Part shown: in pieces, positions 54,721 through 60,195 of the stretch | Position numbering within the stretch: the stretch's first letter is position 1 | How the letters are laid out: each line of letters opens with the position of its first letter | Position numbers and translations under genes: made by a program | Assembly: GCA_965222605.1 (NCBI GenBank) | Contig: OZ244960.1 | Location: 1,088,001-1,152,000 of the forward strand | DNA from: Candidatus Latescibacterota bacterium | Lineage (GTDB): Bacteria > Latescibacterota > UBA2968 | Length of the DNA stretch: 64,000 bases | Direction of reading: 5' to 3' | The notes under the pieces: generated by a model | Told to the model about the DNA's origin: nothing | What the model saw: only the letters and a program-made list of their open reading frames with translations | Databases searched by the model: none

Positions 54721-55875
54721 CTACCCTCCAAATGCTTCTCTAACGCGATCAAAAAAACCTTTTCCACCCTCTGGCGGCTGTATGTTTTCCAATTTGGCAA
54801 GCCTGGCAAACAACTCCTCTTCCTCCCGGCTCAATTTTGCCGGCGTCCAGACCGCCACGCGCACGAGTTGATCGCCCGTGCGATATCCATCCAATTCGGG
54901 AATGCCCTTGCCTCGCAATCTAAAAATTCGCCCCGATTGTGTACCCGCAGGGATCTTCATACTCACGCGACCGGTCAGGGTTGGCACTTCTATATCTGCC
55001 CCCAGAGATGCCTGGCTAAAACTGATGGGCAAATCGTACACAATATCGTTACCGTGTCTTTCAAAATATTCGTGTTCTTCTTCTTCGACAAAGACCATAC
55101 AATCGCCCGCTGGTCCGCCATTTGGCCCTGCATTGCCCTGCCCCCGCAACGGAATATAATTGCCTTCGGAAATACCCGCGGGGATATTGACCGAAAGATC
55201 CTTTTGCTTCTTCACTCGCCCCTGCCCCTGACAACTGCCACATCGCTCCCGCACCACGTTCCCACTGCCATTGCACTGCGGGCAGGTTGTGACATTGACA
55301 AACTGTCCAAACAGGGAGCGCGTGGCCTGCCGAATCTGTCCCACGCCACCACACATATCGCATGTTACGGGCGCACTTCCCGGTTTTGCCCCAGCACCTC
55401 CGCACGTATCACAGGTTTCCAAACGCGATAGCCGAATGGTTTTTTGAGCGCCCTCGGAAATCTCCTCTAAGGTCAAACTAATCGAAATCCTCAAGTCCTC
55501 ACCGCGATTTGACCGCCGTGGGCTGCGCCGGCCAAACAAATCGCCAAAGATACCTCCGCCAAAGATCTCATCCAGATTGGAAAAAATATCTTGAAAATCA
55601 CCGGCGTGCGAAAAGTCTGACCACTGAAAGCCACCGCCCCGGAAGGTACTGCTAACACCTTCGTGCCCAAAGCGGTCATACGCCTGTCGCTTTTGTGCAT
55701 CCATCAGCACTTCATAAGCCTCGGCGCCTTCTTTGAACATTTCCTCTGATTGTGGATTGTCCTTATTGCGATCCGGGTGATATTTCAGCGCGTGCTTGCG
55801 ATAAGCCTTCTTAATCTCATCTTCTGAAGCCCCGCGATCCACCCCCAGTATTTCGTAATAATCTCTTTTGGCCAT
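54721..55875 (-). CDS. dnaJ: chaperone DnaJ
   Basis: J-domain HPD, G/F region, four CxxCxGxG repeats. Confidence 0.96.
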
Positions 55876-55935
55876 TGACCTTTCCCATCGACAAACATGT
55901 AAAAAGAGCCGCACAGTTGCGACCCTGTTCATAGT

Positions 55936-56595
55936 CTAACTTTTGTCTGCTTCCTCGCCCCCTTCCGGGGTCTCCTGTGTGGGTTTGCCCTGGCTTACCA
56001 CCACTTTGGCCGGACGCAACACCTTATCGCCCAGGCTATATCCTTTTTCAATCTCATCTGAGACAATACCGGCATCGTGAATTTCCGATGGCATTTGCAT
56101 CAATGCTTCATGCACAGTAGGATCAAATGGTTTGCCAATCGTCTCAATTTCTTTCAAATTGCGATTGTAGAGCACGCGAGGAAATTGCTCCATAATCATT
56201 TTTATGCCTTCTTGAAACCCCTCCGACTCTGTATCCCCATTTTCGCTGTGTGCCAATGCGCGACCAACACCATCTAAAATGGGCAATAAATCGCGAATCA
56301 CATCTTCGCTGGCAGATTGTACAAGAGTCTCAAATTCTCGCGCCCTGCGTTTTTTGTAATTTTCAAACTCAGCGGCGAGGCGTATCCACCGATCTTTGTA
56401 CATTTCGGCTTCTTCGCGGGCCAAAAATAATGGGGTAGCCTCTATCTTCTCCTTTGGCTCCTCCAACTGATCGGCCTCACCATTAACTTCATCTTTCGCC
56501 ACCTCTGACTCTACCTCCTCCACATCTGTATCTTCAACTTCCACAACTTCTTCTTCCAACGGTGGTTCTTCTTTTTTTTCTTTCTTATGCGCCAT
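55936..56595 (-). CDS. grpE: nucleotide exchange factor GrpE
   Basis: RLAAEFENYKKR, FDPTVHEA, GYSLGDKVLRPAKVVV. Confidence 0.95.
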   Translation of the reverse strand: MAHKKEKKEEPPLEEEVVEVEDTDVEEVESEVAKDEVNGEADQLEEPKEKIEATPLFLAREEAEMYKDRWIRLAAEFENYKKRRAREFETLVQSASEDVIRDLLPILDGVGRALAHSENGDTESEGFQEGIKMIMEQFPRVLYNRNLKEIETIGKPFDPTVHEALMQMPSEIHDAGIVSDEIEKGYSLGDKVLRPAKVVVSQGKPTQETPEGGEEADKS

Positions 56596-56704
56596 GATTT
56601 TTCAACAACTCCTCAAAAAATGTCGCAGGAGACCCCTGATGAAAGCGCGAGGATGAATGTGCGAGCACGCGAGCACGCGGTCATGAATGCGACGATTAAA
56701 ATGA

Positions 56705-56733
56705 TTGACACACCGCAAAAATGTGAATATCCT
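56705..56733 (+). promoter_or_regulatory. internal sigma70 promoter of the mini-element
   Basis: TTGACA-17 nt-TATCCT. Confidence 0.65.
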
Positions 56734-56739
56734 ACTATT

Positions 56740-57009
56740 CACAGATTCCAGAAGTTCTGCACGAAATACCCTATCTCCAGTGCAGGTAAAATCTGTATGG
56801 TCAAGCCACAAATATAAGGTGGTTTGAATATAATGACCTGTCTGTATTGACAGGTATCTGGGTTATCCCAGTAGTGGGTGTCCGGCGCACCCCGCAGTCT
56901 TGGCTTAATCGCCATACGGTCTGCAAAGCCGCAAGTTCTCGAAAAGTAGTCCCTGAAGTTTAAGGGCTACCTCCGGAATCCTGCGACTTTAGTCGTGGGA
57001 GCACGTCGA
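56740..57009 (+). ncRNA. candidate structured RNA (omega-RNA-like)
   Basis: At least eight consecutive hairpins from the predicted transcription start to the IS right-end hairpin. Confidence 0.55.
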
Positions 57010-58035
57010 TTATCTGCGATCCAACATCTCTTCTGTCAGATTTGCCATATACTGCACCAGGGGAACGAGCCGTCCATAGGGCAATCGCGTTGGCCCAATA
57101 ATTCCAATAACACCCGACACATTGCCCACCGAATACGTAGAAGTCAGCAAACTGCAATCCTTGAGCGCAGGCGATTCGTGTTCATCGCCAATCGTGATAG
57201 AAATACCCGCATCGCGCGTGCGGTCACTCAACAAATGCGCCACGTATTCACGAGCTTCCAGCATGCCAATCAGCCCGGCCAGGCGTTCACTGGAAAAATC
57301 GGGCTGACCAAAAAAGTTGCGCGTGCCATCCATATGCAGATCGGCACTGCTCGGAAATCTGAATAGATGATCGGCACTATTGGCAAGCAAACGCAACAGC
57401 TTGGGAGACCCGGACGATGCAGACGCAAGCCGTTCTTTAACAGATGCCATAATCTCGCCTATCGTAAGCCCAGAAAGCCGCTGGTTGACCACCCGCCGCG
57501 TTTCTTTCAACTCATCCTCTTCAATTTCTGAGTCGATTTCGACAACCATAGTCTTGACCAGTCCAGACCGAATGGTCATCACCATCAGCAGCTTGGACTC
57601 GCTCAATTTAAGCATTTCTAAACGCTCAAAAATGCCCTGGGTGAATTGGGGTCCAAGTGCAATGCCCAGATTGTGCGATACATCGGCCAAAACTCTGGAC
57701 ACTTGTACCAGTAAATCGTCGGCGTTGCCCTCTCGCAAACGCTCAACACTATCCCGAATAGACCGCTGTGCAGCCTCGGCGAGTTCCTCCCGATTCATCA
57801 ACATATCGACATAGTACCGATACCCCTTATCGCTCGGCACTCTACCCGCCGAAGTATGAGGCTGATACAAATAGCCTTTTTCTTCGAGATCGGCCATCGA
57901 GTTGCGAATAGTTGCCGCGCTGAGTCCCAAATCCATCTTGGAAACTGTGCGCGACCCCACCGGCTCGCCTGTCGTGACATAAGTGCCAATCAAAATGTCG
58001 AGAATTGCTTTTTCCCGAGGTGTCAGTTCGGTCAT
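57010..58035 (-). CDS. hrcA: heat-inducible transcription repressor HrcA
   Basis: GEPVGSR, SAATIRNSMADLE, PHTSAGRVPSDKGYRYYVD, GIIGPTRLPY. Confidence 0.96.
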   Translation of the reverse strand: MTELTPREKAILDILIGTYVTTGEPVGSRTVSKMDLGLSAATIRNSMADLEEKGYLYQPHTSAGRVPSDKGYRYYVDMLMNREELAEAAQRSIRDSVERLREGNADDLLVQVSRVLADVSHNLGIALGPQFTQGIFERLEMLKLSESKLLMVMTIRSGLVKTMVVEIDSEIEEDELKETRRVVNQRLSGLTIGEIMASVKERLASASSGSPKLLRLLANSADHLFRFPSSADLHMDGTRNFFGQPDFSSERLAGLIGMLEAREYVAHLLSDRTRDAGISITIGDEHESPALKDCSLLTSTYSVGNVSGVIGIIGPTRLPYGRLVPLVQYMANLTEEMLDRR

Positions 58036-58222: not shown

Positions 58223-59842
58223 TCAACCCACGGGCTTGCCAAAAGCATTGGCAAATATCAAAAAGTCTGAAAATGCGACTGTACCATCCCCGTCCAAATC
58301 AGCAGCAGCATTGTATCCCGGTCCCCCCTCGCTCGTGCCGAAAGCAGCGACAAAGAGCAAGAAATCGGAGAAATCGACATCCCCGTCACTATCCAGGTCA
58401 GCGCTGGGTGTCTGAGAAGGTGCCTGGCGTATCACGATTAAAGCTTGAATTGCGGTCTCGGAAAGAGGAACTCCGAGAAAGGAAACAGTATCACCCGCCA
58501 TCAGATCGGTAATAGGGAAAAAAAGTTTGGCGAGATCCTCAACATTGCCAGAAAAAAATATTGAGATAATATCCTCAACATTCGTCTGATCGAGGGTAAT
58601 CATCAGAGCCTGTGAGACATCCACGCGCACCTGCTGATCATTGCGTTGAATGAAAAACGAATTATTTTCCACATCTACACTTTGAACGCTCACCTCTCGA
58701 ATGTCAACGGGTTCCAGCTCCGTTTGCAGCATGACCTGTAAATCAGTTACACTGGCACCATCGACAACCTGAATCAGTGTCGAGGGATCAACCCCTCCCA
58801 TTATATTAATTCCCACAAAAGCACCTAACACAACCGTGTTTCCCTGTGCATCCATAACCTCTTGATTCAGAGCCAGTGCATAAGACCCATCCGGCACATG
58901 TTTCAACTCAAACGCCAGTTGTTCTGGGAAGGATTCCAATACACTGAGATTGGCAACGCGAACAATGGCACGCTCGAACGGGTCAGTTCCATCACTTTCC
59001 GTCAGAGCTTTTGAATATAATTCAGAATCAATCAGCACCGCTACACCAGGTGTATCGGACAACGTAACACCCTCGGGCAAAATACCCACGCCGGAAACAA
59101 CGGCATCTGAAAGTTCCACTGTGCCCAAAAAATACTGATGTAGTTCAGAAATATTTGGAATCGACTCGAAATCCGAAATGCCAATAAGCACCTGATAGGT
59201 CGTTCCCTCGGGCAAATTAACGCTGCCCTTCAGTTTCATGGGATCGCTGGTATCTGGTGCAATTGCAAACAATCCAATTGGAAATGAGGTGACAACCCCC
59301 ACATTTTCAATATTGATCCCCCCTGCTGGGTTAGGCGTTACCCCCTCTAAAGGGACATTAAATGTAATCTCAAACTGCTGCATCCCACTCGGCACGGGCG
59401 GATTCTTCACATCTTCCTGAAGCGTCACACCGCCAATCACAAACGAAGTCAAGGCAGGCATAATAGGTTGCTGTTGTACAAAACTATTGGGATCGCCGGG
59501 ATTTGTCACCTGAATGCTCGCATCTGTCATACCATCGCCATCCGGATCACCCAATTCCTGACCATTGGACACGCCATCGCCATCTGAGTCGAGCATTGCG
59601 AGCATGGCATTCCATTGAACGACGCCAGTGCGACCACTCGGCATGAGATAATTGTTCTCGATAGCCATACCAAAAGGCGTGCGAGGCCCACCTCCGCCTG
59701 GGTTCACATGGCACGAAGCGCACCCGAGCGCACGACCATTGGGTATCTGATCTACCCGCGCTGGACGGGCATCGGCCTGTCCCCATCCAATAAAAACAAT
59801 GACCAGGACAGCAAGCAATCTATAAGACTTTAATCGCGACAT
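58223..59842 (-). CDS. secreted protein: CxxCH/temptin-like N-terminus and C-terminal EF-hand/dockerin-like pair
   Basis: Signal peptide; CASCHVNPGGGGPRTPFG...DSDGDGVSNGQELGDP; DLDSDGDVDFSDFL and DLDGDGTVAFSDFL. RBS AGGAGG. Confidence 0.8.
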   Translation of the reverse strand: MSRLKSYRLLAVLVIVFIGWGQADARPARVDQIPNGRALGCASCHVNPGGGGPRTPFGMAIENNYLMPSGRTGVVQWNAMLAMLDSDGDGVSNGQELGDPDGDGMTDASIQVTNPGDPNSFVQQQPIMPALTSFVIGGVTLQEDVKNPPVPSGMQQFEITFNVPLEGVTPNPAGGINIENVGVVTSFPIGLFAIAPDTSDPMKLKGSVNLPEGTTYQVLIGISDFESIPNISELHQYFLGTVELSDAVVSGVGILPEGVTLSDTPGVAVLIDSELYSKALTESDGTDPFERAIVRVANLSVLESFPEQLAFELKHVPDGSYALALNQEVMDAQGNTVVLGAFVGINIMGGVDPSTLIQVVDGASVTDLQVMLQTELEPVDIREVSVQSVDVENNSFFIQRNDQQVRVDVSQALMITLDQTNVEDIISIFFSGNVEDLAKLFFPITDLMAGDTVSFLGVPLSETAIQALIVIRQAPSQTPSADLDSDGDVDFSDFLLFVAAFGTSEGGPGYNAAADLDGDGTVAFSDFLIFANAFGKPVG

Positions 59843-60195
59843 AAACAATCCTCCTGAAGAGGGTAATAAATGGAGACAACACGACGTTGCGTCTCATCTT
59901 CGGAAAATGTAGAGCATGTCCCATTGAAAGGCAACCGCTTTCTCAGTAAAAAAATTGTCTTGCAACTTATAGAGAAATGTTTATAATTGAACCTTGTTTT
60001 TTTATCATTTGTCTATAATTGGATCTTGTCTTAGGGGCATCATCGCCCGACTGTGTAACACATATTTAATACATGAGAAATCACGCTGAAACAAACACCA
60101 TCTATATTTCCTGCCGATATTTCGGGTCGGCAAACACTGCCGATCCTTTCATTTTTCAATACAGGCCACTTTTCTCACAATGAAAGGAGCAGAAT

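Follow-up and report, generated by a model that had tools for sequence, protein, structure and literature searches.

Between the heat-shock genes hrcA and grpE of a Candidatus Latescibacterota bacterium lies an inserted mini-element of 397 bp, TCAAAAAATGTCGC...GCACGTCGA, which encodes no protein and derives by internal deletion from TnpB-encoding elements of the insertion sequence (IS) family IS200/IS605. It was found in a stretch of 64,000 nucleotides, here called the window (GenBank assembly GCA_965222605.1, contig OZ244960.1, positions 1,088,001 to 1,152,000), where it occupies positions 56613-57009 when read on the + strand. We consider it probable (roughly 0.65) that the element is a protein-free derivative of the type known as palindrome-associated transposable elements (PATEs), with a promoter and an RNA scaffold, and that its omega-RNA is used by TnpB in trans. 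An earlier note on this DNA, made from the sequence alone, had proposed an RNA-only mobile unit supplying a scaffold to a TnpB or a TldR in trans. The gene-less IS derivative with a covarying scaffold is borne out, and the genome offers four intact TnpBs as possible partners; the use in trans we infer.

Boundaries and allelic state of the insertion

The gap between grpE and hrcA measures 414 bp (56596-57009), as first noticed, and the mini-element sits in it with the stop codon of hrcA on one side and the ribosome-binding site of grpE on the other. The earlier note was right to place an insertion here, whilst the limits that it gave, 56622-57030, have to be replaced. In the public DNA run X7, one contig of ~99.6% identity joins 56612 to 57010, skipping exactly 397 nt with an ambiguity of 1 nt in the boundary, and a second contig of the same run covers 56620-57001 and represents the filled allele beside the empty one. 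The insertion therefore spans 56613-57009, its left boundary lying 9 nt further left than had been supposed, and it is polymorphic in at least one sample, with no target duplication. Run X3, DNA from another study, yielded contigs of the filled form only.

Empty hrcA–grpE junctions, which the earlier note had thought worth seeking, are thus found within the species, and they are also found outside it: all 20 congeneric genomes lack the insertion, the hrcA 3' end being present in every one, and in these grpE starts ~17-60 nt from the hrcA 3' end. No full-length match to the mini-element or to the full gap was obtained in any of 40 relatives.

The element lies 3' of the tetranucleotide CTCC (56609-56612, + strand), a candidate target or transposon-adjacent motif (TAM) positioned by the join in the empty-allele contig, and this tetranucleotide is the complement of the grpE Shine-Dalgarno sequence GGAG. 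Amongst the seven copies of the family detected in the genome the left flank reads CTCC in four and ATCC, TCCC and TTTC in the others; the right flanks are unrelated to one another. At the other boundary, the element ends ...ACGTCGA with its last base at 57009, directly adjoining the hrcA stop codon (TTA on the + strand, 57010-57012), as the earlier note had seen.

The CTCC motif of the family is the complement of the Shine-Dalgarno core in general, and at six of nine left-end boundaries examined the start codon of an opposite-strand open reading frame (ORF) of at least 60 amino acids (aa) lies 6-17 nt away. Genes beside family copies include those for GrpE, topoisomerase I, an MR/MLE enolase-superfamily enzyme, an SPFH/Band 7 protein and an Rce1-like protease. 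This gene-start siting could be due to a target preference or to the survival of insertions only in intergenic DNA.

Relationship to full-length TnpB elements

When the gap was compared by BLAST with its own 6.34-Mb genome, the right 159 nt recurred at five other loci with 75-80% identity, and the left end recurred at the same five loci, 1.2-1.5 kb from the right-end match. Between those ends lie ORFs of 412/413 aa, and all three that were tested carry OrfB_IS605 and Cas12f1-like_TNB domains. Four of the five full-length copies hold an intact 412/413-aa tnpB, and the fifth is broken into pieces. Two expectations of the earlier note, that copies with other flanks and tnpB loci with the same ends might exist, are answered by these five full-length loci and by a mini-element of 115 bp elsewhere in the genome.

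An nhmmer profile was built from the five full-length copies. Positions 1-84 of the mini-element (window 56616-56699) align to full-length positions 1-77 (E 2.7e-07), and BLAST matches the same left end to those of the five full-length copies and of the 115-bp mini-element. The left end as a whole is assigned to 56613-56699 (+ strand) and has an outer stem GTCGCA (56622-56627) / TGCGAC (56688-56693), at the positions originally reported. Positions 184-394 (56799-57009) align to full-length positions 1293-1486 (E 1.5e-33). These are the terminal 194 nt of the full-length copies, made up of ~140 nt from the 3' end of tnpB and 52 nt past its stop codon. Only the 99 nt at 56700-56798 are left unaligned to the full-length copies. 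With both ends aligned and only this stretch unmatched, we conclude that the mini-element arose by internal deletion from a TnpB-only element of the IS200/IS605 family and in this way lost nearly all of tnpB. Subterminal hairpins are found at both of its ends, the left-end hairpin being weaker by eye than in the full-length copies.

A coding relic of tnpB, of which the earlier note had seen no trace, is present: tblastn with the full-length TnpBs aligns residues 382-396 and 398-410 in two different frames with ~60% identity, a frame-broken remnant of the last ~30 codons (residues ~382-410) at about 56861-56945 on the + strand. Such a relic is to be expected, because an omega-RNA region should contain the decayed tnpB 3' end. 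TnpB residues 296-315 and 360-383 also aligned to 56727-56850 in tblastn, but these matches (E 0.02-0.3 with a 474-nt target) were rejected as too weak. The longest ORFs inside the insertion are of 40-76 aa, and none of the five tested gave a Pfam match above cutoff (best E 0.059).

Other reduced copies of the family were observed. The 115-bp mini-element (~115 bp; G000:C1:1886433-1886546, L007 1439-1552) consists of 47 nt of left end and 52 nt of right end, the latter 98% identical to the right end of the window element; it has neither promoter nor scaffold, lies just upstream of the topoisomerase I start and is seen also in DNA runs X3 and X7. Another genus of the same family contains a mini-element of 354 bp with different deletion breakpoints (G024; L009, G024:C481, about 1303-1657, - strand), referred to below as the G024 mini-element, which retains at least 158 nt of scaffold (161.6 bits). 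On a congener chromosome (L043), tnpB breaks off in its middle and continues directly into the final ~35 nt of the right end, and the scaffold is deleted.

Structure and conservation of the scaffold

The omega-RNA scaffold region, made up of the tnpB 3' end and the right end, covers ~211 nt (56799-57009, + strand). It is preceded by a leader hairpin, ACAGATT.../...AATCTGT, at 56741-56796 (+ strand), which falls within the 99 nt that have no detectable match to the full-length copies. The dense hairpins described by the earlier note are real: on the + strand 56740-57009 folds at -96.1 kcal/mol (z -4.74), with none of 200 shuffled sequences as good. The - strand folds equally well (z -5.42), and folding energy cannot separate the strands since both fold far better than shuffles.

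Comparative evidence was obtained with RNAalifold from 11 fairly close Latescibacterota sequences, namely the window mini-element, the G024 mini-element and nine full-length right ends; the L012 copy (from G019), the 115-bp mini-element (L007) and L043 were omitted, the latter two being without scaffold. Five main helices were predicted over the last ~160 nt, and the 64 predicted pairs are 95.5% paired across the 11 sequences. The helices covary, as the covariance modelling proposed in the earlier note had set out to establish. Double changes are seen in 14 pairs; shuffles give 5.7±1.7, with 0/500 reaching 14, and sliding the partners by 1-3 columns gives at most five. Invariant G-U pairs at columns 120-140 and 157-203, present in 11/11 sequences each, fit the + (tnpB-sense) strand and not its complement.

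The resulting covariance model, R1, recognizes its core in the window at 56848-57009 (+ strand; 135.3 bits, E 2e-35). Within this core is the terminal right-end hairpin, TCCTGCGAC-TTTA-GTCGTGGGA, at 56979-57000 (+ strand), corresponding to helix 11, which has eight pairs, two of them changed on both sides. Run on the genome, R1 returned the same seven copies as BLAST and no extra one; across the phylum it matches 7/151 genomes, this one included. Relative to the full-length consensus the mini-element has 33 substitutions and keeps 45 of the 52 model pairs, seven of them via double changes, whilst random placement of 33 substitutions leaves 38.1±2.6 pairs and reaches 45 in 29 of 5000 simulations. 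The G024 mini-element keeps 47/52 pairs, a number reached in 14/5000 simulations. Together this evidence indicates that the scaffold was under selection, which need not still be the case, as the changes may predate the loss of tnpB. The comparison with Rfam that had also been suggested matched no family to the element: when 56000-57600 was scanned with cmscan (Rfam 15, which may hold no model for this TnpB clade; E up to 10), the single match was to a snoRNA, lay outside the element and is put down to chance.

The terminal right-end hairpin together with GGGAGCACGTCAA is common, almost exactly, to TnpB elements of Mycolicibacterium, Mycobacterium, Streptomyces and Leucobacter (L042, L044, L047, L048, L050). 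Outside the terminal hairpin the scaffold gave no usable alignment with four actinobacterial right-end sequences. The similarity may reflect horizontal spread or the wide conservation of a 3' module.

Promoter and RNA-library contigs

A sigma-70-like promoter, TTGACA-17-TATCCT, is directed towards the right end at 56705-56733 (+ strand; 10/12 matches), where the earlier note had placed it, and is the sole promoter-like site in 56300-57300. Taken alone this site is weak evidence. It is placed like the tnpB promoter of the full-length copies: TTGACA-17-TATATT or TTGACA-17-TATAAT occurs between the left end and the tnpB start in all five aligned copies, with 11/12 matches in the full-length copy L002. 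The G024 mini-element has TTGACG-17-TATACT in the same orientation just past the left-end hairpin (10/12, 0.2 expected). The window site gains weight because a near-consensus promoter, similar in position and orientation, is present in all three types of element.

Two metatranscriptomes contain contigs from the element. A contig from X12 covers 56750-57012 with 0 differences, and one from X13 covers 56802-57421 and bridges the element and hrcA. Both libraries come from one study, and the contigs carry no strand, transcript ends or expression level, with DNA carry-over possible; they are consistent with expression and say no more. The stretches uncovered by contigs, 56545-56749 in X12 and 56420-56801 in X13, were not counted as evidence, and contig depths (in X12 26.7 for the element, 5.15 for hrcA and 2.1-2.7 for grpE; in X13 13.1) are not usable for ranking. 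The end of the X12 contig at 57012 is perhaps an assembly branch with the near-identical right end of the 115-bp mini-element and has no bearing on guide length.

Predicted guide and candidate partner proteins

From the layout of IS200/IS605 omega-RNAs, the guide is predicted to be TTATCTGCGATCCAACATCT (57010-57029, + strand), antisense to the last hrcA codons. The earlier note's proposal that the guide would match the empty donor site agrees with run X7, in which the predicted guide, next to CTCC, matches the empty allele, CTCC followed by TTATCTGCG.... The 20-nt predicted guide has one perfect match in the genome, its own flank; the next-best match has three mismatches and no adjoining CTCC. 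A trans regulatory role on DNA is argued against by this want of another good genomic target.

In the resident TnpBs, Gly takes the place of the RuvC-II Glu (IILGDL as against IQMEDL of PDB chain 8j12_A; full-length copies e.g. L002:367-1605). Amongst 115 homologues of at least 44% identity, the RuvC-II Gly is found in 113/115, a Glu in SEKYTSQ (E334) in 111/115, D198 in 115/115 and D369 in 113/115. Clades of TnpB with a rearranged RuvC-II are predicted to be active, according to passages of Altae-Tran et al. 2023 (PMC10691335). The resident TnpB resembles the RIIr-5 clades in those passages in having a RuvC-II Gly and a conserved downstream Glu, an assignment by motif only. The conservation of D198/E334/D369, as in the rearranged clades of that article's passages, makes it more likely, on sequence grounds, that the resident TnpB is a nuclease than a dead repressor. 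A TldR-type guide RNA, the other option of the earlier note, was considered and is unlikely, given that the partner TnpB clade keeps a rearranged acidic triad and that the guide has no host promoter target elsewhere.

The genome has 35 loci with a Cas12f1-like_TNB domain, most with open frames of 374-414 aa, and one clear Y1 TnpA. Searches for this transposase gave one strong match to PF01797 (160 aa) and two weak ones. The strong TnpA is flanked by different hairpins, and the left- and right-end motifs searched for are absent from its locus.

In the mechanism favoured here, the promoter would fire rightwards at about 56740 and yield an omega-RNA of roughly 270-290 nt, whose 3' guide would come from the neighbouring 3' end of hrcA. 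This RNA would be bound in trans by one of the four intact 412/413-aa TnpBs encoded elsewhere in the genome. The complex would then cut chromosomes carrying the empty CTCC-TTATCTGCG... junction, and recombinational repair would copy the element back, so that it would home or be retained although it encodes no nuclease itself. As the omega-RNA would run against the operon, an antisense effect on the hrcA–grpE–dnaJ mRNA is possible as a secondary consequence.

Competing explanations

Several observations weigh against use of the RNA in trans by a mobile element. The left-end hairpin looks degenerate by eye beside those of the full-length copies. A full-length parent of the mini-element's subfamily was sought without success in this genome, in another 150 genomes of the phylum and in a metagenome collection, and scans of metagenome contigs for the left-end word of the subfamily and for the right-end pattern gave 0 hits each. 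Present-day mobility is doubtful, since the sole good Y1 TnpA has different end hairpins. In the scaffold 7/52 pairs are broken, the model score is 135 bits as against 177-190 for the full-length copies, and identity to the resident scaffolds is 75-80%; for these reasons the fit of the scaffold to the resident TnpBs is putative. The structure that is preserved could be mere inheritance from a recent full-length ancestor. The promoter match is by itself not above chance, shuffles giving 1.3±1.2 sites per kb, and the evidence for RNA consists of strandless contigs from one study, in which DNA may have been carried over. Furthermore, no cognate TnpB for the G024 mini-element is present in its 89%-complete assembly, none being closer than 35% identity, and orphan scaffolds can therefore persist without a partner.

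An alternative to be taken seriously, albeit an unlikely one, is that the element is a dead deletion derivative, its RNA a by-product and its promoter and scaffold spared by chance in too little time for decay. The degenerate left-end hairpin, the broken pairs and the lower covariance-model score fit such a relic, as does the fact that no cognate TnpA was found in the genome. The scaffold is missing from other derivatives (the 115-bp mini-element at G000 1886433-1886546 and the truncated L043 copy), and the G024 mini-element is without a matching TnpB in its assembly. Yet two mini-elements from two genera, with different breakpoints, have both kept a promoter and at least 158 nt of scaffold, and in both the pairs kept exceed those left by random substitution (29/5000 and 14/5000 simulations, as above). 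Seven pairs of the window element have changed on both sides and still pair, and one natural sample contains both the filled and the empty allele. The element might otherwise serve the host, as a cis or antisense element uncoupling hrcA from grpE–dnaJ through convergent transcription or RNA duplex formation, or as a - strand site of RNA processing or stability. The geometry would allow this, with a + strand promoter facing the operon and a predicted guide antisense to the 3' end of hrcA; moreover, the two strands fold equally well, and the X13 contig joins element and hrcA in one RNA-library sequence. Such a role is nevertheless improbable: the operon has a 17-60 nt gap and no element in 20/20 congeners, the empty allele persists in the species, the G-U pairs favour the + strand, and the family is likewise sited before unrelated genes, a pattern that speaks for a preference in target sites and not for a function in heat shock. 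Dense hairpins inside a heat-shock operon might also suggest a native structured intergenic RNA, such as a thermosensor, riboswitch or leader, that is not mobile. That reading is refuted by ends homologous to TnpB elements, by absence from all 20 congeners and by the existence of an empty allele, and no Rfam family was matched at E up to 10.

It is attractive to extend the favoured reading, of a protein-free element whose omega-RNA is used in trans, to a live guide-only parasite of resident TnpBs in a wild symbiont population, homing against a circulating empty allele, with a family that colonises sites upstream of ribosome-binding sites and with the outward omega-RNA transcript as an antisense brake on the gene upstream, here the heat-shock repressor hrcA. 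This combination is speculative and, taken as a whole, rather unlikely to hold.

The surrounding operon

All three genes of the operon lie on the - strand: hrcA at 57010-58035 (PF01628, E 4.9e-50), grpE at 55936-56595 (PF01025, E 5e-44) and dnaJ at 54721-55932. No match to the CIRCE consensus with up to three mismatches was found in the window. Upstream of hrcA is an ORF of 541 aa (58223-59848, - strand) that matches Temptin_C, dockerin and EF-hand. Read in the direction of the operon, the left-end outer stem GTCGCA...TGCGAC (56622-56693) followed by ATTTTTT lies just ahead of the grpE ribosome-binding site, and a simple scan picks out a small terminator-like hairpin at 56638-56626 on the minus strand, which might render the insertion polar on grpE–dnaJ.

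Relation to known systems and significance

For the TnpB of ISDra2, Karvelis and colleagues are said to have reported in 2021 that the omega-RNA is encoded in the sense direction by the 3' end of tnpB together with the right end. DNA just outside the right end reportedly serves as guide, and the target is a TAM, TTGAT, beside the empty donor joint. The window element shares with ISDra2 the position of the RNA at the tnpB 3' end and right end, a flank that is the predicted guide and a candidate TAM beside the empty joint. It differs in lacking any detectable sequence or Rfam match, in having CTCC instead of TTGAT, and in having no tnpB gene upstream of the RNA. The PATEs of Haloquadratum walsbyi are reportedly archaeal non-autonomous elements of IS200/IS605 type that carry terminal palindromes but lack an ORF; their description reportedly preceded the discovery of guide RNAs. 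The palindromes and the lack of an ORF are as in the window element, whilst the archaeal host differs.

Much closer are the PATE-like gene-less elements of Geobacillus, which, as described in passages of the preprint of Meers et al. 2023 (PMC10055086), often encode omega-RNAs and would need the TnpB of other IS copies in trans. According to the same passages, the PATEs of the ISGst family in G. stearothermophilus likewise combine the left and right ends of a TnpB-encoding IS with an omega-RNA region and no gene. TnpB would likewise be needed in trans, in a TnpA-poor family with many elements without tnpA. The window element differs from what is described there in its host phylum, Candidatus Latescibacterota, in its target motif CTCC and in a partner TnpB with a rearranged RuvC-II. 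Relative to that description, the promoter, covariation, natural empty allele and RNA-library contigs are documented here for one copy. Nothing closer than Meers et al. 2023 was found in the literature on stand-alone or orphan TnpB guides, and closer work may exist. Gene-less PATEs bearing an omega-RNA are thus already in print (Meers et al. 2023), and the window element is a further example.

Current knowledge is left unchanged by this element, because omega-RNA-bearing PATEs have already been noted in print. What it does provide is a natural case of a guide-RNA module split from its nuclease gene, with both alleles present in environmental data and four possible TnpB partners. A TnpB clade whose active site is rearranged thereby gains a candidate TAM, CTCC, and a compact scaffold. 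Elements of this kind bear on the modularity of TnpB, a step often invoked on the way towards CRISPR arrays.

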